Below are positions 14,149 through 34,859 of a stretch of 38,469 nucleotides of DNA, piece by piece (position 1 is the stretch's first letter; every line of letters begins with the position of its first letter). This DNA is from an uncultured Candidatus Saccharibacteria bacterium. GTDB taxonomy: Bacteria > Patescibacteriota > Minisyncoccia > Phycocordibacterales > Zambryskibacteraceae. The stretch covers positions 1 through 38,469 of the forward strand of contig CAYFZH010000003.1 of assembly GCA_964347785.1 (NCBI GenBank), in the 5' to 3' direction. The translations under genes were made by a program, and so were the position numbers. The notes beneath the pieces were generated by a model. The model had not been told where the DNA came from, made no database searches, and was given only the letters and a program-made list of their open reading frames with translations.

Positions 14149-14985
14149 TCAGTACGGGACGTATTGCCCGCTGGTCTTGCCGGCCAAACGCTGGAGGTTA
14201 TCCTCACAAGCGTATCGACCACCGTCAGGCAAACAGGTCGCGACGACCGGAGGAAGGAACATGGGTCGCCCCCAGCTCCAGCCCATCGGCCAGTCGTCAC
14301 CCGGCTCGTCCGTGATGAGGATGATCGAGTCGGGGTCGTCTTCGTCGGCCTTCTTCAAGGCCTCGAAGGTGTTCTCCACTGCCCCGTGAGGAGAAATGTT
14401 CACGAACCCTTCCGGATCGATCTTCCGGACCTCACCGTCCGCGTAGAGCCAGATGCCGATGAGCTCCTTGCCTTGGTCCTGCAAAGCGGCGGAGTAGAAC
14501 GAGGCCACAGTGGCCCGATCGTTGTCCATCGAACCCGACTCGTCGATGACGAGAGCGACCCGCTTGCCCACGACCTTGGTCACCACCGCATTGATCTGCG
14601 GCGGAGCTTCGGCCATCGGGATGTTCAGAAACATCCCCGGCACGAGCGTGTTACCGTACGGCTTCCGGAACCTGTCGTTACAGAATGTTCCGGAGCGCCG
14701 CGGGTTGTCCCGATACTTCCGAGACAAGTCGCCACAGATGCGGTCGTACTGCGTCTGCAGATACGACTCGTTGACGTACAGCATCGTCGCACGCTGGACC
14801 GTGTAGCGGTCCGCGATCAGGTTCAGGTACTCGCCACGACGCACCTCGTGCGTCCCCTGGATGGCGAGGCGCTTCTCCCCACTCCCAACCGAGGGAGAGG
14901 GAGCCTTGAGCCAGTTGAAAAGCAGGACCAACAGAACGAGAACGAACGCGACGCCGCCGACCTTCTTCAGGTGCTGTGTATGCAC
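14149..14985 (-). CDS. Membrane-anchored protein with a LysM-like segment and a von Willebrand factor A (vWA) domain
   Basis: GTG start with AAGGAGG 4 nt upstream. The N-terminal hydrophobic anchor is VGGVAFVLVLLVLLF. The LysM-like segment is HEVRRGEYLNLIADRYTV...LVPGMFLNIP. A MIDAS-type motif (VALVIDESGSMD) is followed later by IILITDE. Local GC is about 60 percent. Confidence 0.7.
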   Translation of the reverse strand: MHTQHLKKVGGVAFVLVLLVLLFNWLKAPSPSVGSGEKRLAIQGTHEVRRGEYLNLIADRYTVQRATMLYVNESYLQTQYDRICGDLSRKYRDNPRRSGTFCNDRFRKPYGNTLVPGMFLNIPMAEAPPQINAVVTKVVGKRVALVIDESGSMDNDRATVASFYSAALQDQGKELIGIWLYADGEVRKIDPEGFVNISPHGAVENTFEALKKADEDDPDSIILITDEPGDDWPMGWSWGRPMFLPPVVATCLPDGGRYACEDNLQRLAGKTSGQYVPY

Positions 14986-27982: not shown

Positions 27983-28699
27983 ATGGCCGGATACATCACC
28001 ATCTTCATCGGCATGATTGCCGAAGGGGTCGTCATCTACTCAGTGAAGAACAACACATGGTCGCCCATCACAGGGCTCGCCATCGGCGTAGTCATCGTCG
28101 CCATCATGGCGGTTGTCTGGTTCGCACATCAAGCGATCATCGACGCCGCCGGTAGGTTCGGGCTCGCCGTCGTGGACTTCTTCAAGAACAACTGGAAGAA
28201 GATCCTGAAGTGGCTCTTCGTTCTGAGTGCCGTCGCGCTGACTATCTACATGATCTGGGTCATTGCGGTGGCGTACGACAAGCGCTCACCTGCTACCCCT
28301 GCCCGCGCTCCGGCAGCCTCAGCAACAAGTGCCCCCACGACAACTGGCGCAGAACCAGATCACGTCACGGCACGTACCGGTGTCTGGTCACCAGTGACTC
28401 GTATCACGATGGACAGGCAGGTCCTCTGGGATCCTGCCCGAAACGTCGGGTTCATCATCCGGACGAACTCCGGTGAGGAGTATGAATACCCGAGAGATCC
28501 CGAAGGGCACAGACTCACGGCGTGTGAACGCCACGTCTACATCCCCGAGGCCGTCTCGAGCTTCCAAGTGAAGCTCATCGAAGGGGAGGAACCGACAGCA
28601 CTCCGACTTGCGTGGTCAAAATACACCCCTGGTGGTCCGTGCCATCAGACAGAAGCCACCACAACTCCAGAGGAGGAAGAACCTTTGGAGGAAGCTTAA
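27983..28699 (+). CDS. Hypothetical membrane protein, 238 aa, orphan
   Basis: AAGGAGG lies 6 nt upstream of the ATG. About three N-terminal TM helices are followed by a P/A/T-rich linker (PATPARAPAASATSAPTTTG) and a ~110-aa C-terminal domain with an acidic tail. The gene is GC-rich. Confidence 0.65.
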   Translation: MAGYITIFIGMIAEGVVIYSVKNNTWSPITGLAIGVVIVAIMAVVWFAHQAIIDAAGRFGLAVVDFFKNNWKKILKWLFVLSAVALTIYMIWVIAVAYDKRSPATPARAPAASATSAPTTTGAEPDHVTARTGVWSPVTRITMDRQVLWDPARNVGFIIRTNSGEEYEYPRDPEGHRLTACERHVYIPEAVSSFQVKLIEGEEPTALRLAWSKYTPGGPCHQTEATTTPEEEEPLEEA

Positions 28700-28718
28700 A
28701 ATGCTTCCTTGTTACCGC

Positions 28719-28753
28719 AAGGCGCCCCGTCGATCTCGACGAGGCGCCTTTTC
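28719..28753 (+). terminator. Rho-independent terminator
   Basis: AAGGCGCCCCGTCGA-TC-TCGACGAGGCGCCTT (15-bp stem, one mismatch) is followed by TTCTC. Confidence 0.6.
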
Positions 28754-28771
28754 TCATACCTCAAACAGAAG

Positions 28772-29038
28772 TTAGAAGTTCAGGTAAGTTGGGTTAGGGA
28801 TACCAAACGTTCCCAGCACTAGTCTGATCAGTCCGTAAGCCGAGAACATGATAAACATCCCGAAGAGTCCGTAGAGGATCTTCTTCTTCCCTTCTTCTCT
28901 CTTGGCATCAGCAGTCTCTGAGTTCACGAACTGGAAGATCCCCCAAAAGAAGACGAAGAGGGCCAAGACGAACGCAAACCTGATAATAGGGTTTATGATC
29001 ACCCCATTGATCTTATTGAGGAACGGTATGATCGACAT
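28772..29038 (-). CDS. Small two-helix membrane protein, VirB2/TrbC-like pilin candidate (paralogue 1)
   Basis: FVLALFVFFWGIFQFV - charged loop SETADAKREEGKKK - ILYGLFGMFIMFSAYGLI. It aligns with paralogues 2-4. The ATG is at 29038; the track uses a TTG at 29041. Confidence 0.6.
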   Translation of the reverse strand: MSIIPFLNKINGVIINPIIRFAFVLALFVFFWGIFQFVNSETADAKREEGKKKILYGLFGMFIMFSAYGLIRLVLGTFGIPNPTYLNF

Positions 29039-29050
29039 CAAGAGAAGAGA

Positions 29051-29386
29051 CTAGATTCCTGGAACTCTAGGTACTGAGATACTATCACCCTGTCCGACAC
29101 CTACAGCCACACCTATCCACCTCACTAGACCCCAGACAGAGACCATGACGAAGAGAGCCACAAGGCCCCAGATCATAAAAGAGGATCCTTCCTTCTTTGC
29201 ATCATCACCACCGAAGATAAACTTAACCAGACCCCAGAAGAACGAGAGGAGTCCTAGAGCAATAAGAATAGGTAGAGCTGTCTCTATGAGGTTACCGATA
29301 GCAGTAAGGATAGAGCTTACGTTCGACAACTGAGCAGATGCACCGAGAGGGGCGAGAGCGAGGGCAGTAATAATAAATTTTTTCAT
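29051..29386 (-). CDS. Small two-helix membrane protein with signal peptide, pilin candidate (paralogue 2)
   Basis: Signal-like MKKFIITALALAPLGASA, then LPILIALGLLSFFWGLVKFIFGGDDAKKEGSSFMIWGLVALFVMVSVWGLV. Confidence 0.65.
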   Translation of the reverse strand: MKKFIITALALAPLGASAQLSNVSSILTAIGNLIETALPILIALGLLSFFWGLVKFIFGGDDAKKEGSSFMIWGLVALFVMVSVWGLVRWIGVAVGVGQGDSISVPRVPGI

Positions 29387-29489
29387 TTTCTAAATCTAAT
29401 TTAATGACTAGTTTCTAATTTCATACCTACACGGTATATGTATATGATACGTCAAGCAAAGCATCTCGCAAGACTCTTATCCCCTACCT

Positions 29490-30002
29490 CTACCTCCAGA
29501 TCTGCCACCAAGCCGGTTGGTTGGGAGCCTCTGGGATGTTGCCGGCTTCTGGTTGGCTGGGTCGATAGTTTAGATAATTGAAGTCGTTAGAAGGCAGGTT
29601 GCCCGCTTCTGGTTGGTTGGGTTGGTTCAAGAGATGGTTGAAGTTGCTTGACGGAAGGACTCCTGCCTCCGGTGTCCTTGGTAGCCAGTTAAGGTAGTTG
29701 AAGTCAAACCTCGATGGAGTTACTCCTGCTTCTGGCGCATTTTGTGTCGCGGTCATAGGCAGGTCGAAGGCCTTCTGAATAAACGCCACCAGTCCCCAGA
29801 TAGAAAACATGACGAAGAGTGAGACGAGCCCCCAGACCATGAGACTCCGACCTTCCTCAACCTTGCCCTCACCACTCCCAAGTTTGAAGACAAACCGCAC
29901 CAACCCCCAGAGGAAGACGACGAGTGCCACAGATGCAAGCAGGGCAATACTCTGGTTTATGAGCGCGCCTGTCTGGACTATCAGTGTGGCGAGAGTGGGC
30001 AT
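29490..30002 (-). CDS. Two-helix pilin candidate (paralogue 3) with a C-terminal tandem-repeat tail
   Basis: The core is LLASVALVVFLWGLVRFVFKLGSGEGKVEEGRSLMVWGLVSLFVMFSIWGLV. It is followed by four 20-21-aa PEAG-initiated repeats. Confidence 0.65.
   Translation of the reverse strand: MPTLATLIVQTGALINQSIALLASVALVVFLWGLVRFVFKLGSGEGKVEEGRSLMVWGLVSLFVMFSIWGLVAFIQKAFDLPMTATQNAPEAGVTPSRFDFNYLNWLPRTPEAGVLPSSNFNHLLNQPNQPEAGNLPSNDFNYLNYRPSQPEAGNIPEAPNQPAWWQIWR
29493..29735 (-). repeat. In-frame tandem repeat, 60-63 bp, about 4 copies
   Basis: The protein repeats are PEAGVTPSRFDFNYLNWLPRT, PEAGVLPSSNFNHLLNQPNQ, PEAGNLPSNDFNYLNYRPSQ and PEAGNIPEAPNQP.... The DNA motif GCC(G/C)GCTTCTGG recurs at 29541 and 29601, with diverged copies near 29662 and 29725. 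Confidence 0.8.
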
Positions 30003-30004
30003 GG

Positions 30005-30301
30005 TTAGAAAGCGGGTCCGTAAGTCTGTGGTAGAAGGGGCACTCCGATACTAGGACCGAAGCCGATGTCTCTGTAGAAGAACTGGATGATCCCGTAGAC
30101 CGAGATCATGACGAAGAGTGCTAGTACTCCCCAGAGGAGCAAGCTCTTACCCTCAGCGAGACCCTTGGTGTCTCCAGACTTCATGATAAACGTGACTATA
30201 CCCTTGAAGAAAACAAGGAGTGTGAGCGCCACCACCACCGGTATCGCCAGGGTGAGTAGGTTGGTAAAGATTCCTAGAAGGCTAGTGAGGTCTGTAGGCA
30301 T
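30005..30301 (-). CDS. Small two-helix membrane protein, pilin candidate (paralogue 4)
   Basis: IPVVVALTLLVFFKGIVTFIMKSGDTKGLAEGKSLLLWGVLALFVMISVYGII. There is a 2-nt gap to paralogue 3. Confidence 0.6.
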   Translation of the reverse strand: MPTDLTSLLGIFTNLLTLAIPVVVALTLLVFFKGIVTFIMKSGDTKGLAEGKSLLLWGVLALFVMISVYGIIQFFYRDIGFGPSIGVPLLPQTYGPAF

Positions 30302-30304
30302 AGG

Positions 30305-30733
30305 TTAGACGATGAGCTGGTCCACTGTCGCCTTGATCACGTTGGCGAAGACCCATGCACCGAGAAGAAGTGCTGTGCCTATGGCGGTATAGAGAAGTGC
30401 TCTGTGAGCTTCCTCTATCGCACTCTTGTCTCCCTGAGCCATGACGTACTTGAAGCCCGAGTAGATAAAGGCAAGTACAGCAAGCACGGCTCCAAGAGGC
30501 AGGATGACATTGTCTATGATCATCTTGAGGAAGGTGAAGAGGGTGCAATTATTACCGCAAGCAAGAGGGTTATCGATGGTGATATTAGAAGAAGCTGGAG
30601 GGTTACCTGCTCCACCAGCACCTGGAGTACCAGCTCCTCCGGCACCAGGGTTGCCAGCATTAGCAAAAACAGTCACCCCTCCAGAAAAAGTCAGGGTGAG
30701 AATGATAAGCGAATTTATTAAAATTTTCTTCAT
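30305..30733 (-). CDS. Secreted or membrane two-helix protein with a Gly/Pro/Ala low-complexity N-region, divergent pilin candidate (paralogue 5)
   Basis: Signal-like MKKILINSLIILTLTFSGGVTVFA, then GNPGAGGAGTPGAGGAGNPP (about 30587-30655) and the Cys pair ACGNNC. Two hydrophobic helices are split by MAQGDKSAIEEAHR, a TrbC/VirB2-like topology. Confidence 0.6.
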   Translation of the reverse strand: MKKILINSLIILTLTFSGGVTVFANAGNPGAGGAGTPGAGGAGNPPASSNITIDNPLACGNNCTLFTFLKMIIDNVILPLGAVLAVLAFIYSGFKYVMAQGDKSAIEEAHRALLYTAIGTALLLGAWVFANVIKATVDQLIV

Positions 30734-30743
30734 AATTAATTTA

Positions 30744-31094
30744 CTACTGAACTACTGGAGTACCAAGTAGTGTATAACCTGAACTCAAGAGCACATTGGT
30801 AATAGTATAGATGATAAGCCATGCTGAGAGTATCACTACGTAGCCTGTGACAACCTTGCCCAGTATATCCTTGGCCTTATCCAAGGCGCTCTTGTTGCCG
30901 TTGGAGGTGAGGAGAAGGAAGCCTGCGTAGCAGAAGGCAACCACCGCAAGGAGGGTTGCGATGAGGACGAGGTCGGTGATGAGGTTCTTGATCAAGTGTA
31001 TGAGGTCGGCAAACCCGCACTCGTGTACATATGCACTATTAACTCCTTCCCCAGGGGTTACTCCACATATCACTAGATCTTGCCAAACTGCCAT
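30744..31094 (-). CDS. Two-helix membrane protein with a Cys-containing N-region, divergent pilin candidate (paralogue 6)
   Basis: ICGV...HECGF in the N-region, then LVLIATLLAVVAFCYAGFLLL - TSNGNKSALDKAKD - GKVVTGYVVILSAWLIIY. There is a 1-nt gap from the upstream SBP gene. Confidence 0.55.
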   Translation of the reverse strand: MAVWQDLVICGVTPGEGVNSAYVHECGFADLIHLIKNLITDLVLIATLLAVVAFCYAGFLLLTSNGNKSALDKAKDILGKVVTGYVVILSAWLIIYTITNVLLSSGYTLLGTPVVQ

Positions 31095-31095
31095 A

Positions 31096-32379
31096 TTATT
31101 TGATTAAAGCGTCTAATTGATCATTGGCCTTGCTGACCGCCTCGGTCGTCCTTGCTCGTCCAGAGGTCACTGTGTCTATCATATCAGCAAAGATCTTCTC
31201 ACTACTCACAGCATCTGGGTCAAGCCAACTCCTAGCTTGAAGCGCTCCGCCAAAGAAGACTGGGAAGACAGCATCAGTCGGTCTCTGAGAGAGAAGGTCT
31301 CTGCGAGCTGGAGCAAGCCACATAGTGGACCAGATAACTGCAGAACTCTCTGCCGAGACTAGTCTGAAGGCTGCCGTGAGAGCTGCAGAAGGGTTTCTCG
31401 ACCCTCGGGAGAGGGAGACTGCACGCACACTCGCGACTGTGAGAGTCCTACCAGAGACGCGCGACTGGGGCACAGGAGCGACAGCGAAGTTTAGAGTCGG
31501 GTTCTTGCTCCTTAGAGTGCGGAGCTCAGAAGCAAATCCTAGGTAGTACACCAAGTCTCCCGAGGCAAACCTGCTTTGTGCCTCTGGTAATGTCCTATTC
31601 CAACTATAGTAAGCCTTGGTCGGGTTTGAGAACTGAGTATAGAAGTCTACCGCCGAGACAGCAGGTAACACAGGAGCGTCGAGGAACTGGTTGAGATACG
31701 AGGCAGTACGCCCACCTAGAGAGCCGACGATAGGGTTACCAGCTTGGATCATGAGGAGTGAGAGGATGTCCTTGGAGTTCTTGATATTCTTGGTCTCACC
31801 GAGAGCGATAGCAGACTGAGTCAGGTTCCCTGCTTGGTCACGCTGGGAGAGATCGAGGGTTTGTTTGTAGAGTTCGTCCCAATATGAGATAGGTTTAGCA
31901 AGACCTGCCTCAGAGATGAGATCTCGGTTGTAGTAGAGGACGAGAGGATCTACAGACAAAGGTAGACCATAGACGCCATCACTCGCAAGGTAGATCTCCC
32001 CCGCTTCTACAAATGTATCCTTGAAGGTCCTCTCAGAGAGGCTCTGGTAAGGGATGGGGATGAGCTTGCTCCTGTTCTTCCAAAACTGGTCTTGAGAGAG
32101 GATGATGAGGTCTGGACCACTACCAGAAGCAAGAGCCTCGGTGAAGTCTCTCTCGAGGGTGCTGGCTGGTCTCTCGACATAAGACAGTGTAAGGCTCGTG
32201 TCACTAGAGAAGGGGGCTGAATTTAAAAGTGTGTTGATGTCCTGAGACGGTATGTCGCCCCAGATGACCACTCTCGCTTGAGTCGAACTCGCACCACCAC
32301 GATATAGAGCAAAGACTGCCACAGCCACCAAGATAAAAAATCCGAAAACGCACAGGAGAATAATCTGAAACTTAGTCAT
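31096..32379 (-). CDS. Membrane-anchored extracellular solute-binding protein homologue (family 1 / sugar-type SBP fold); no ABC partner genes in the window
   Basis: The N-terminal TM is IILLCVFGFFILVAVAVFAL. VVIWGD, GSGPDLIILSQDQ and GVYGLPLSVDPLVLYYNRDLISEAGLAKPISYWDEL are typical SBP_bac_1/8 patterns. Confidence 0.7.
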   Translation of the reverse strand: MTKFQIILLCVFGFFILVAVAVFALYRGGASSTQARVVIWGDIPSQDINTLLNSAPFSSDTSLTLSYVERPASTLERDFTEALASGSGPDLIILSQDQFWKNRSKLIPIPYQSLSERTFKDTFVEAGEIYLASDGVYGLPLSVDPLVLYYNRDLISEAGLAKPISYWDELYKQTLDLSQRDQAGNLTQSAIALGETKNIKNSKDILSLLMIQAGNPIVGSLGGRTASYLNQFLDAPVLPAVSAVDFYTQFSNPTKAYYSWNRTLPEAQSRFASGDLVYYLGFASELRTLRSKNPTLNFAVAPVPQSRVSGRTLTVASVRAVSLSRGSRNPSAALTAAFRLVSAESSAVIWSTMWLAPARRDLLSQRPTDAVFPVFFGGALQARSWLDPDAVSSEKIFADMIDTVTSGRARTTEAVSKANDQLDALIK

Positions 32380-32420
32380 AGACTAATTCTATAACAGAAT
32401 TAGCTAGAAACTATCCCCAA

Positions 32421-34859
32421 TTATAGACAGATGAGTGATGCAAGTGAGTCCCCTTCGCGGAGCTTCATGATACGCACGCCTTGAGTCTGTCGTCCGAGGA
32501 CAGGAACTTCCTTGAGATCGACACGGACTACTTGAGACTTCTTGGAGATAGCGATGACCTCTTCCTCAGCCTCTGTCACCACTTGAGAAGAGATGACTGA
32601 GCCAGTCTTGGTAGTGACCTTGGAGGTAAGGATACCTGAGCCACCACGACCTTGAACCTTGTACTCGGAGAGTGCGGTGCGCTTGCCGTAACCATTGGCA
32701 GAGATGACGAGAAGGTGACCACTCTTCCACTCCTTCTTTATAGTATGAGCTCCGATAACAGAGTCCCCCTTGCCGAGCTTGATCCCGCGGACTCCACCAG
32801 CAGCACGACCCATCTCGCGGATGTCAGCTTCCTTGAAGCGGATAGACTGACCGTCTTGAGTCACCACTGCGACATCGTCTCCCTTCTCTACACCCTGCAC
32901 GGAGATAAGCCTGTCACCCGGAGCGAGCTTGATAGCGATGATGCCAGAGGAGCGCACATCGGTGAAGCTCTTGGCAGAGACCTTCTTCGCCGTACCCTCT
33001 GCAGTGACCATGATGAGTGAGCCCACGATGTTCTTCTGCTCCTTGGGCATTGGGAGGATAGAGGTCACCTTCTCGTCGTCTTGGAGAGAGATGAAGTTCA
33101 TGATGCTCTTACCACGAGTAGCGCGCTTGCCCTCTGGGAGGTCATACATCTTGATCTGATACGCCTTACCCTTGTCGGTAAAGAAGAGTAGGTCATCGTG
33201 AGTAGAGGCGGTGAGGAAACTCGTGACGAAGTCCTCCTCCTTGGTATCGAGGTCGACCACACCCACTCCTCCACGCTTCTGACGCTTGTACTCGTCTGGG
33301 TTGGTGCGCTTGATGTAACCTCCGGAGGTCAGCACGAGGGCATTCTCCTCCTCTGGGACCAAGTCCTCGACAGAGAGGTTCTTGACCGCACCCTTCATCA
33401 CTCTCGTCCGACGCTCGTCTCCGTACTTCTCCTTCACATCCTCGAGTTCCTTCCTTACCACTTGGAGAATCTTCTTGGTCGAGGAGAGAAGGTCCTTGAG
33501 GAAGGCGATGAGAGCTTGGACCTCGGCGAGCTCGTCCTCGATCTTCTTCCTCTCGAGTCCAGCAAGCTTCTGCAAACGCATCTCGAGGATGGCGCTGGCT
33601 TGGATCTCGGAGAACTTGAACTTCTTCATCAGGTTCTCTCGAGCATCGTCTACTGACTTAGAGGCCTTGATGATCTTGATCACCTCGTCGATATGGTCGA
33701 GTGCCTTAGAGAGACCGAGGAGGATGTGCTCTCGCTCCTCTGCACGAGCTAGGTCGTAGGCAGAGCGACGGCGCACGACTTCTTGTCTGTGCTTAAGGAA
33801 CTCTTCGAGGATCACCTTGAGAGAGAGCGTCTGAGGCACTCCGTCGACAAGAGCGACGAGGTTGAGGTGGAAGGTGTCCTCAAGCTGGGTGTGCTTGTAT
33901 AGAGAGTTCAAAATCTTCTGAGGCTGACTACCGACCTTGAGGTCGATAGCGATACGGATATCCTTGGCTGACTCGTCGCGGAGACCCTTGATACCCTCAA
34001 TCTTCTTCTCTCGGTGGAGCTCGGCGATCTTCTCGATAAGGTCTGCCTTGTTTACACGGTAAGGGATCTGGGAAATGATGATTTGGAAATTGCCCGCCTT
34101 GTTCTCGACGATATCTGCTACACCTCTTGTGACTATAGGACCTCGGCCAGTGGCGTAAGCGTGGTGGATATCCTTCTCGTTGAAAATAACTCCGCCAGTA
34201 GGGAAGTCAGGTCCCTTGATAAACTCCAGAAGATCCTCGGTCGTAGCGTCTGGGTCCTGAGAGAGAGTGATGGTGGCGTCGATAACCTCGTTTAAGTTGT
34301 GAGGAGGGATGTTGGTTGCCATACCGACGGCGATACCGAGCTGGCCGTTGAGCAAGAGGTTCGGAGCCGCAGCTGGGAGTACCTTCGGCTCCTCCTTGGT
34401 GCCGTCGTAGTTGGGTTGGAAGTCGACAGTGTCCTTGTCGATATCCTTGAGCATTTCCCCTGCGAGCTTGCTCATCTTCGCCTCGGTGTAGCGGTAGGCG
34501 GCAGCACCGTCTCCGTCGATAGAGCCGAAGTTACCCTGTCCGATGATGAGCGGGTAGCGCATAGCGAAGTCCTGTGCCAAGCGCACCATCGCGTCATAGA
34601 CCGCCACGTCGCCGTGTGGGTGGTAGGATCCGATCACGTCTCCGACGACGGTTGCTGACTTCCTCGTCTTGCCACCAGCGGTGAGACCCTTCTCATTCAT
34701 CGAGTAGAGGATGCGTCGGTGGACCGGCTTCAGACCGTCACGCACGTCTGGGAGAGCACGGTCGGTGATCACCGACATCGCATAGTCGATGAAGGACTCC
34801 TTCATCTCGGTCGTGATCGACTGGGCTATGACTCTTTTGTTTTCTTCGTTAGGGGACAT
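32421..34859 (-). CDS. gyrA: DNA gyrase subunit A
   Basis: [28 protein letters not shown], the active-site region [11 protein letters not shown], and a C-terminal beta-pinwheel repeat region. Confidence 0.95.

Follow-up and report, generated by a model that had tools for sequence, protein, structure and literature searches.

The locus described here poses the question of what a solute-binding protein (SBP) might do at the head of six genes for small pilin-like proteins when neither a transporter nor a secretion system is encoded beside them. It occupies positions 28,772 to 32,379 of a window of 38,469 nt, the whole stretch of DNA analyzed, which belongs to a 54-kb metagenome contig (CAYFZH010000003.1, assembly GCA_964347785.1) whose organism is placed in the Patescibacteria, class Paceibacteria. 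Seven minus-strand open reading frames (ORFs) are packed there behind gyrA (ORF 32421-34859), the first encoding a membrane-anchored SBP and the next six encoding two-helix paralogues, with intergenic gaps along the module of 1, 10, 3, 2, 103, and 9 nt. An original prediction, made from the sequence alone, had described this layout, and the ORFs and gaps are as it gave them, the last gap being 9 nt if the sixth small gene is read from its TTG and 12 nt if read from its ATG. It had also likened the six proteins to the VirB2/TrbC pilins of type IV secretion systems (T4SSs). On balance, we infer that the module is probably a T4SS pilin set of Paceibacteria (Zambryskibacteria-type) together with a dedicated SBP-fold accessory protein.

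Conservation of the SBP-Pilin Linkage

Related loci were gathered through relatives of the SBP, by a scan of GTDB species (one genome per species) and by a metagenome scan seeded with the most distant SBPs. The former returned 170 SBP relatives, from which 80 loci with 35-62% SBP identity were kept, belonging to Zambryski-, Nomura-, and Kaiserbacteria and other Paceibacterota; the latter returned at least 491 SBP relatives, including 43 loci with room for an array. In every one of the 59 GTDB loci with at least 4 kb of downstream sequence, four to seven same-strand pilin-like ORFs directly follow the SBP gene, and 40 of the 43 metagenome loci share this arrangement, the other three either showing the pilins ~1.2 kb away from the SBP gene or yielding just two of them. 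On the long contigs of relatives the order gyrA, SBP, and six or seven PF18895 genes recurs. The gene order, the conservation of which the original prediction had left to related genomes, is thus kept, and the link from SBP to pilins is essentially invariant in ~100 loci, down to 35% SBP identity. In 107 of 144 loci at most 10 nt separate the SBP gene from the first pilin gene, the two overlapping in 35, and the coupling is often translational.

The flanks of the module vary. A methyltransferase gene stands between gyrA and the SBP gene in ~50 loci, and the downstream genes differ. This methyltransferase, a class I S-adenosylmethionine (SAM)-dependent enzyme of ~190 aa that is Methyltransf_11/UbiE-like (for example at L039:9399-9986), is a feature of distant lineages and not of the window. 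Many of the module-bearing GTDB records (L009, L010, L017, and others) are titled “uncultured Candidatus Saccharibacteria bacterium,” and L081 is titled “Bacillota bacterium”; on records carrying a module of Paceibacteria type, these titles look like generic or wrong labels.

The SBP-Fold Protein and Its Membrane Anchor

The first gene (31096-32379, minus strand) encodes a 427-aa MalE-fold protein of the solute-binding type. It matches SBP_bac_8 (E = 1.6e-13) and SBP_bac_1 (E = 3.9e-12) in Pfam, and its AlphaFold2 model (pLDDT 68.6) finds oligosaccharide SBPs as the top Foldseek matches, at E ~1e-17. Among the top 50 matches, 2zyo, 7c67, 4r9g, and MalE give query-normalized TM-scores of 0.58-0.68 at 15-19% identity. 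A hydropathy scan shows one membrane helix, near the N-terminus (about residues 6-25), and with these three lines of evidence in agreement, the family-1 SBP homologue tethered by an N-terminal transmembrane helix that had been proposed is upheld. Database sources likewise label the protein an ABC substrate-binding protein, and its closest homologues, at 56-68% identity, are named Candidatus Zambryskibacteria and Parcubacteria. The family forms a large, discrete group: at E ≤ 1e-30 it comprises 1472 clusters at 50% identity, and the best 150 of them are ~430 aa long except for three fragments, nearly all aligning from residue 1 or close to it.

The anchor is a conserved part of this family. The N-terminal helix is present in 79 of 80 orthologues, with F4, F12, and F23 at least 95% conserved and Q5 at least 85%, a degree of sequence conservation that appears unusual for a mere tether. 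No lipobox Cys accompanies the helix in the window's protein, and a lipoprotein anchor was rejected for the family, as a Cys lies near the helix in just 2 of 80 orthologues. Across the 80 species, 42 residues of the SBP reach at least 95% conservation, many of them aromatic and polar. Aligned by hhalign with the E. coli maltose-binding protein (MBP), the family matches over the N-lobe alone; in that lobe, MBP E111 corresponds to the invariant D144, MBP D65 corresponds to D97, which is not family-invariant, and W62 is replaced by Leu. A cognate permease pair and ATPase for the SBP were found neither in the window nor within 10 kb on either side of ~160 homologous loci, nor does any ABC gene lie in the 3.9 kb of the source contig beyond the right end of the window, in keeping with the earlier claim that the SBP is an orphan.

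Six Pilin-Like Paralogues

The six small proteins, all encoded on the minus strand, have PF18895 (T4SS_pilin; gathering cut-off 26.6 bits) as their best Pfam family, and four of them, pilins 1, 2, 5, and 6, exceed the cut-off. Pilin 1 (30744-31094; 116 aa, 31.2 bits) is a hairpin preceded by a 30-aa Cys-containing N-terminal extension. Pilin 2 (30305-30733; 142 aa, 32.7 bits) has a signal-peptide-like N-terminus, then a Gly/Pro-rich repeat, GNPGAGGAGTPGAGGAGNP (DNA 30599-30658, 24-nt period, 2.5 copies), and a CxxxC motif before its hairpin. Pilin 3 (30005-30301; 98 aa, 18.8 bits) consists of the hairpin only, and pilin 4 (29490-30002; 170 aa, 24.6 bits) adds to the hairpin a C-terminal tail (29493-29741) of four ~20-aa repeats, PEAG..P..F-N-Y-L-N. 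Pilin 5 (29051-29386; 111 aa, 31.0 bits) pairs a signal-peptide-like N-terminus with the hairpin, and pilin 6 (28772-29041; 27.5 bits), of 89 aa from TTG or 88 aa from an ATG at 29038, is again the hairpin only. Pilins 3 and 4 fall below the PF18895 cut-off yet are clear paralogues of pilin 5, with BLAST E-values of 7.6e-21 and 1.6e-18, respectively. The lengths of the repeat extensions of pilins 2 and 4 differ among orthologues.

Most of what had been read from the letters about these proteins was borne out. By hydropathy, each of the six 88-170-aa proteins has two hydrophobic helices separated by a charged loop; the six align on the consensus proposed earlier, with pairwise BLAST values down to 7.6e-21; and extra N-terminal segments resembling signal peptides are found in exactly two, the 142-aa and 111-aa proteins. 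A type IV prepilin identity was rejected, since the short basic leader followed by Gly and then F/M-x-x-x-E is absent from all six, in agreement with the G/FxxxE motif having been noted as missing. The Pfam family for T4SS-pilin-like proteins of candidate phyla radiation genomes to which the original prediction pointed does exist and is PF18895. A profile built from 98 members of related arrays retrieves from the ORFs of the window the six pilins and no others (E from 2e-34 to 5.5e-26), pilin 5 scoring best at 112.7 bits and pilin 3 reaching 91 bits.

The likeness to VirB2/TrbC stood in part. PF04956 (TrbC/VirB2; cut-off 27.9 bits) is the second-best family, and of the 98 related-array members, 95 match PF18895 and 28 match TrbC at E ≤ 0.01, the best at 1.6e-7. 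However, none of the six reaches the PF04956 cut-off, pilin 2 coming closest at 24.3 bits and the others having 16.6 bits or less or no match. Against the PDB, the top sequence match of the 98-member profile is TraM, the VirB2-type pilin of pKM101 (8cw4), although weakly (E = 0.019), and NCBIfam returns weak matches to a “pilin-like conjugal transfer protein” of a Mycoplasma integrative and conjugative element. The tie of the array to VirB2/TrbC is, judged from these profiles, one of remote relatedness and not of PF04956 membership. The AlphaFold2 model of pilin 5 (pLDDT 70.4) finds in Foldseek only generic helical hairpins, at E > 0.6, and therefore says nothing for or against VirB2. Holins, transporter subunits, and other families of small membrane proteins were considered and rejected, as Pfam and NCBIfam returned noise-level matches only (Yip1, VIT1, and DUF families among them).

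Fixed Subunit Positions Within the Array

Each pilin of the window finds its best match in other genomes at the same ordinal position, and such orthologues are 42-51% identical, compared with 19-42% among the paralogues of the array. Conservation across species is highest at positions 5 and 6, with mean identities of 0.50 and 0.51. Individual positions also keep traits of their own: among 33 six-gene arrays, position 2 has three hydrophobic segments in 29, and the last position, always occupied by the shortest pilin, pilin 6, has two of them and a length of ~88 aa in 32; Cys is kept at position 1. Since positional orthology and position-specific traits persist, the set of six is old and fixed, and these comparisons indicate that the pilins are ancient position-keeping orthologues and not a fast-varying cassette.

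In some relatives, position 1 carries a large additional part. IPT/TIG domains precede a C-terminal T4SS_pilin domain in proteins of 564 aa (L072, 11304-12998) and 700 aa (L114, 1018-3120), and a 553-aa protein (L103, 11317-12978) has a long N-terminal part free of Pfam matches before its C-terminal T4SS_pilin domain. Because the IPT/TIG domains are fused N-terminally, the N-terminus of the pilins is predicted to lie outside the cell, and position 1 is likely an adhesin-bearing subunit. Apart from these fusions, very large surface-protein genes stand near some arrays (L059:10860-15230 and L156:544-3204); one such protein of 1456 aa has YDG/MBG repeats, and another of 886 aa has bacterial Ig-like and PA14 domains.

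Predicted Promoters, Candidate Regulatory Motif, and Probable Terminator

The SBP start lies 41 nt downstream of the gyrA stop codon, and a putative module promoter occupies 32386-32418 on the minus strand, where a -10-like TAGAAT (32391-32386) ends 6 nt before the SBP ATG and GGGGATAG is found at 32411-32418. In 36 of 40 Zambryskibacteria-like loci (L003-L047), a -10 hexamer ends 5-9 nt short of the SBP start codon, compared with 4.8 loci expected by shuffling. With a -10 box ending so close to the start codon, the mRNA of the SBP, and with it that of the module, is probably leaderless or nearly so. In distant lineages, the SBP gene instead abuts the upstream methyltransferase gene.

A second promoter-like element (29423-29484, minus strand) lies in the 103-nt spacer between pilins 4 and 5. 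It consists of GGGGATAA at 29477-29484, a sigma-70-like TTGCGA-16-TATCAT at 29471-29444, and then a small hairpin, ATACC-GTGTA-GGTAT. An alignable spacer of ~80-140 nt precedes the penultimate pilin gene in nearly all arrays, and TTG-N19-21-TAYNNT occurs in 39 of 56 spacers, compared with 5.6 expected, with the consensus TTGNNN-16-TAT(C/G)(A/C)T. On these motif counts, a conserved internal promoter is predicted to precede the last two pilins. An RNA element in the spacer was considered and rejected, as there is no Rfam match and the fold is no better than that of shuffled sequences (z = -0.64), and a promoter explains the conservation of the spacer better.

The octamer GGGGATAR occurs six times in the window, compared with 1.6 expected, always on the minus strand (912, 13058, 19564, 29477, 32411, and 36568). 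Two of the copies immediately precede the two putative promoters of the module, and in Zambryskibacteria the pilin 4-5 spacer keeps AGGGGATAAC. It is possible that GGGGATAR may serve as the site of a shared regulator. Between the convergent ends of the array and the gene at 27983-28699 lies a G+C-rich hairpin of 14 bp (28719-28750, strand not assigned); when folded, the 71 nt that include it reach -32.5 kcal/mol (z = -4.65), a value matched by none of 200 shuffles. This hairpin is a probable bidirectional terminator and would mark the end of the operon.

Relation to the Type IV Secretion System

In ~160 loci, ORF clustering, motif searches, and Pfam reveal no gene for VirB4, VirD4, VirB6, or an ABC transporter in the 10 kb to each side of the module, and there is no VirB4, VirB6, VirD4, ABC permease, or ABC ATPase among the ORFs of the window, where the sole ABC-type signature is that of the SMC protein. 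T4SS genes are likewise absent from the 3.9 kb of contig past its right end. The module lies outside a T4SS gene cluster as a CONJScan-type definition draws it, by which a component lies within ~20 coding sequences of VirB4 (PMC12102498), since no VirB4-like ORF is found in the window or within 10 kb of the module in the 160 related loci.

The machinery itself is found in the clade. Table S1 of PMC12102498 gives VirB4 as “Yes” for three module-bearing genomes, Parcubacteria C7867-005 (L033), Parcubacteria C7867-007 (L065), and Zambryskibacteria RIFCSPLOWO2_02_FULL_39_14 (L015), and one part of it does so for 22 of 25 Zambryskibacteria rows. The sequence around the module is free of VirB4 over 10 kb to either side in L033, over 6.3 kb upstream and 10 kb downstream in L065, and over 10 kb upstream and 3.6 kb downstream in L015. 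T4SS machinery is therefore present in the clade but encoded elsewhere. The separation from VirB4, VirB6, and VirD4 that had been claimed thus holds for the gene layout, but VirB4, on those entries, is encoded elsewhere in such genomes.

Arrays of this kind have been described. VirB4 is found in 2417 of 3035 Patescibacteria assemblies, leaving ~20% in which it is not detectable, and VirB2-like pilins occur near virB4 in 1135 of 1948 assemblies, with 441 arrays of 2-11 pilin genes (PMC12102498). Southlakia epibionticum (S. epibionticum) carries six essential PF18895 VirB2-like pilins, SEML1_0014-0019, inside its T4SS locus, and no SBP is annotated in that cluster, substrate- or solute-binding proteins being found only at other loci in the text and supplements (PMC10633639). 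One of these, SEML1_0634, is a family-5 peptide-binding SBP encoded beside secG and a tRNA gene and is essential or growth-defective in transposon sequencing (PMC10633639, supplement); it may be a further seemingly orphan binding protein of importance to epibiotic growth. For a cultivated member of the Microgenomatia, tubular structures “that may be T4SS pili” have been reported. The role of the T4SS and of its unexpected pilins in Patescibacteria is stated to be unknown, with speculation that they serve as a signal conduit or in uptake from the host (PMC11665869; PMC12857230).

Other Features of the Window

The remaining genes of the window are of the housekeeping type and include those for RNase R, SMC, RNase III, NusB, RNase HII, DnaE, tRNA synthetases, and GreA, as well as PBP2, MreC, MreB, an M50 protease, RRF, the Pol III delta' subunit, an FKBP, and an FAD oxidoreductase. 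The window contains neither an Rfam family nor a tRNA gene. The 238-aa membrane protein encoded downstream of the array (27983-28699) was considered as part of the module and rejected, since its gene is not conserved beside the array in relatives. An ORF of 278 aa at 14149-14985 (minus strand) combines an N-terminal membrane helix with a LysM-like stretch and a VWA-like DESGSMD motif and has no Pfam match at E ≤ 0.001; it lies in a local G+C peak (0.58) and is overlapped by a long ORF on the opposite strand. Cumulative GC skew falls to its lowest value near 29-30 kb, where the pilin array lies, and climbs thereafter (window 28000-31000); the base composition of the pilin genes or a replication landmark could account for this.

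Discussion

The features above allow a scheme to be proposed in which the module furnishes the pilins of a T4SS together with a protein that serves them. In this scheme, the six proteins would insert in the membrane as hairpins with both ends outside, and would be non-interchangeable subunits of one structure. The last two, having their own conserved promoter, may be produced in abundance, pilin 5, with its signal peptide, being the best candidate for the major subunit, and pilins 1 and 2, with their Cys-containing extensions, could be minor or tip subunits. The filament would be assembled by a VirB4-type T4SS encoded elsewhere, as in related genomes. The SBP would be its dedicated partner, the outward-facing lobes of which could bind an oligosaccharide-like ligand, most plausibly a glycan of the host envelope, and the conserved membrane helix of which may contact the pilin pool or the T4SS within the membrane. 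By such contacts it could link recognition of host or ligand to the assembly or use of the pilus, be it for sensing, docking, or capture of material. We infer, in general terms, a surface or host-contact apparatus, as the original prediction suggested. The placing of the SBP as a receptor at the base of the pilus is more tentative and, taken by itself, rather doubtful. A bolder form of it, in which the SBP captures a host glycan or other molecule and its helix gates or feeds the six-subunit pilus, so that the T4SS would be an SBP-dependent organelle of sensing or uptake and not an exporter, is unlikely at present.

Several considerations weigh against the reading of the module as a T4SS pilin set with a dedicated SBP. 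The link to VirB2 is remote, PF04956 being below its cut-off for all six proteins and the hairpin model finding generic hairpins. As no T4SS gene lies near any of the loci, co-function rests on family membership and on co-occurrence in three genomes; further, the organism of the window is known from its 54-kb contig, and the VirB4 evidence comes from other genomes only. No pilus made of these proteins has been seen in any Paceibacteria. For the ligand proposed for the SBP, one MBP ligand residue is matched by the invariant D144 and W62 is not kept, in an alignment with MBP confined to the N-lobe, and the model is mediocre; both the “major subunit” and the “leaderless” proposals are drawn from promoter-like sequences only. 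Finally, synteny in most loci extends to gyrA and a Lactamase_B_3 gene, and part of the conservation of the module is thus general stability of gene order in the clade.

Two alternatives answer to some of these points, and both are improbable. The first holds that the hairpins and the SBP form a membrane complex independent of any T4SS, a non-ABC device for SBP-dependent uptake or signaling in which the likeness to pilins is ancestral. The absence of T4SS genes around the ~160 loci, the setting among housekeeping genes, and the fifth or so of Patescibacteria assemblies lacking a detectable VirB4 would suit it, as would the conserved membrane helix, which suggests contacts within the membrane, and the typical place of SBPs in import and sensing. 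However, the PF18895 members of S. epibionticum are essential and lie inside a T4SS locus, VirB4 is listed in Table S1 for three module-bearing genomes, and the large adhesin-type extracellular domains at position 1 suit a surface fiber better than a channel. In addition, we know of no precedent for a transporter made of VirB2-like hairpins.

The second holds that the SBP has nothing to do with the pilins but serves a carbohydrate ABC importer, the permease and ATPase of which are encoded elsewhere, and that the adjacency is frozen gene order. Its bona fide SBP_bac_1/8 domains, the oligosaccharide importer SBPs that are its closest structures, and its annotation as ABC substrate-binding all agree with such a role, and gyrA and the Lactamase_B_3 gene show that neighbors can be conserved here where no functional link is expected. 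Frozen order does not, however, account well for a junction with pilin 1 that is so tight (10 nt or less in 107 of 144 loci, with overlap in 35) when that between gyrA and the SBP is interrupted in ~50 loci. The large discrete family of ~430-aa proteins (1472 clusters at 50% identity), the anchor conserved in sequence, and the absence of any permease or ABC ATPase within 10 kb at ~160 loci also speak against it. Least probable is that the six pilins are interchangeable variants, a diversity cassette for host range or antigenic variation as suggested in PMC12102498, since, although low paralogue identity (19-42%) resembles the figures reported for such arrays and gene number ranges from four to seven among relatives, the positions are orthologous across species with only 35-60% SBP identity, keep their traits (a signal peptide at position 2, ~88 aa without one at the last, Cys at position 1), and are split at the same place everywhere by a conserved internal promoter, all of which argues for long-term purifying selection on each pilin and not turnover.

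The module resembles several known systems in part and differs from each. The pilin array itself is not new, as arrays in Patescibacteria, including the six genes of S. epibionticum, have already been described; the module shares with them the PF18895 family, tandem divergent paralogues, and a context free of relaxase (PMC12102498; PMC10633639; PMC12857230), and with S. epibionticum it shares six members and a monoderm, host-dependent bacterial setting. However, it lies outside any virB4 cluster, behind gyrA among housekeeping genes, its six positions are conserved orthologues with an internal promoter, and it is headed by a membrane-anchored MalE-fold protein, whereas no SBP is annotated in the S. 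epibionticum cluster. The original prediction had called the coupling of such an array to an SBP, apart from VirB4, VirB6, and VirD4, other than textbook, and the pairing with an SBP goes unmentioned in the literature searched. A solute- or substrate-binding protein is unmentioned in the survey PMC12102498, in a 2025 review, and in a 2024 perspective, and in a literature check that was incomplete no indexed paper combined Parcubacteria, type IV secretion, and solute binding.

The TrbC/VirB2/TraM pilins of diderm bacteria (PF04956; 8cw4) are likewise small, with two hydrophobic helices, a short polar loop, and in some cases long signal peptides, but there one major pilin is accompanied by VirB5, whereas here a monoderm has six paralogues, and cyclization or a lipid-bound pilus is without evidence here. 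With the SBPs of CUT1 importers (MalE, the cyclo/maltodextrin-binding 2zyo, and the beta-glycoside-binding 7c67), the protein shares the two-lobe fold and the SBP_bac_1/8 domains, at 15-19% identity; it differs in having a conserved membrane-helix anchor in place of a signal peptide or lipid anchor, and in the placing of its gene, which at most loci either overlaps the adjoining pilin gene or almost touches it. In other systems, binding proteins relay host or pheromone signals to T4SS control, as do ChvE, acting with VirA in Agrobacterium, and PrgZ of pCF10. ChvE is of the ribose/galactose-binding type and PrgZ of the OppA type, neither is encoded with pilins, and they act through a kinase or the Opp permease; the likeness thus lies in a periplasmic-binding-fold protein tied to a T4SS by ligand sensing, although the SBP families differ from that found here. 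In the archaeal bindosome (Bas of Sulfolobus), sugar-binding proteins are organized at the cell surface together with small pilin-like proteins bearing class III signal peptides, an ATPase of their own, and a membrane protein. In contrast, no G/FxxxE prepilin motif is present at the N-terminus of the SBP described here, MTKFQIILL, where Lys stands at -1 and Leu at +5, and the proteins encoded with this SBP are VirB2-like.

What appears to be new is the essentially invariant coupling to an SBP, the fixed set of six pilins, the conserved anchor of the SBP, the internal promoter, and the listing of VirB4 elsewhere in three module-bearing genomes. The module is widespread, as its SBP family takes in at least 1472 clusters at 50% identity and occurs in more than 170 GTDB species and at more than 490 metagenome loci, and surveys of T4SSs limited to the vicinity of virB4 miss it. 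An ancient, fixed set of six pilins argues against the reading of such arrays in the literature as a means of antigenic variation. Further, the pairing of SBP and pilins hints that what is suspected to be a secretion pilus senses or takes up host material; as the binding-protein fold is a hallmark of ligand capture, it gives a concrete component to the speculation about sensing and uptake. Should the pilus indeed be gated by the SBP, the system would be the first T4SS with a binding protein coupled to it, and would give molecular access to the ways in which ultrasmall bacteria live off their hosts.

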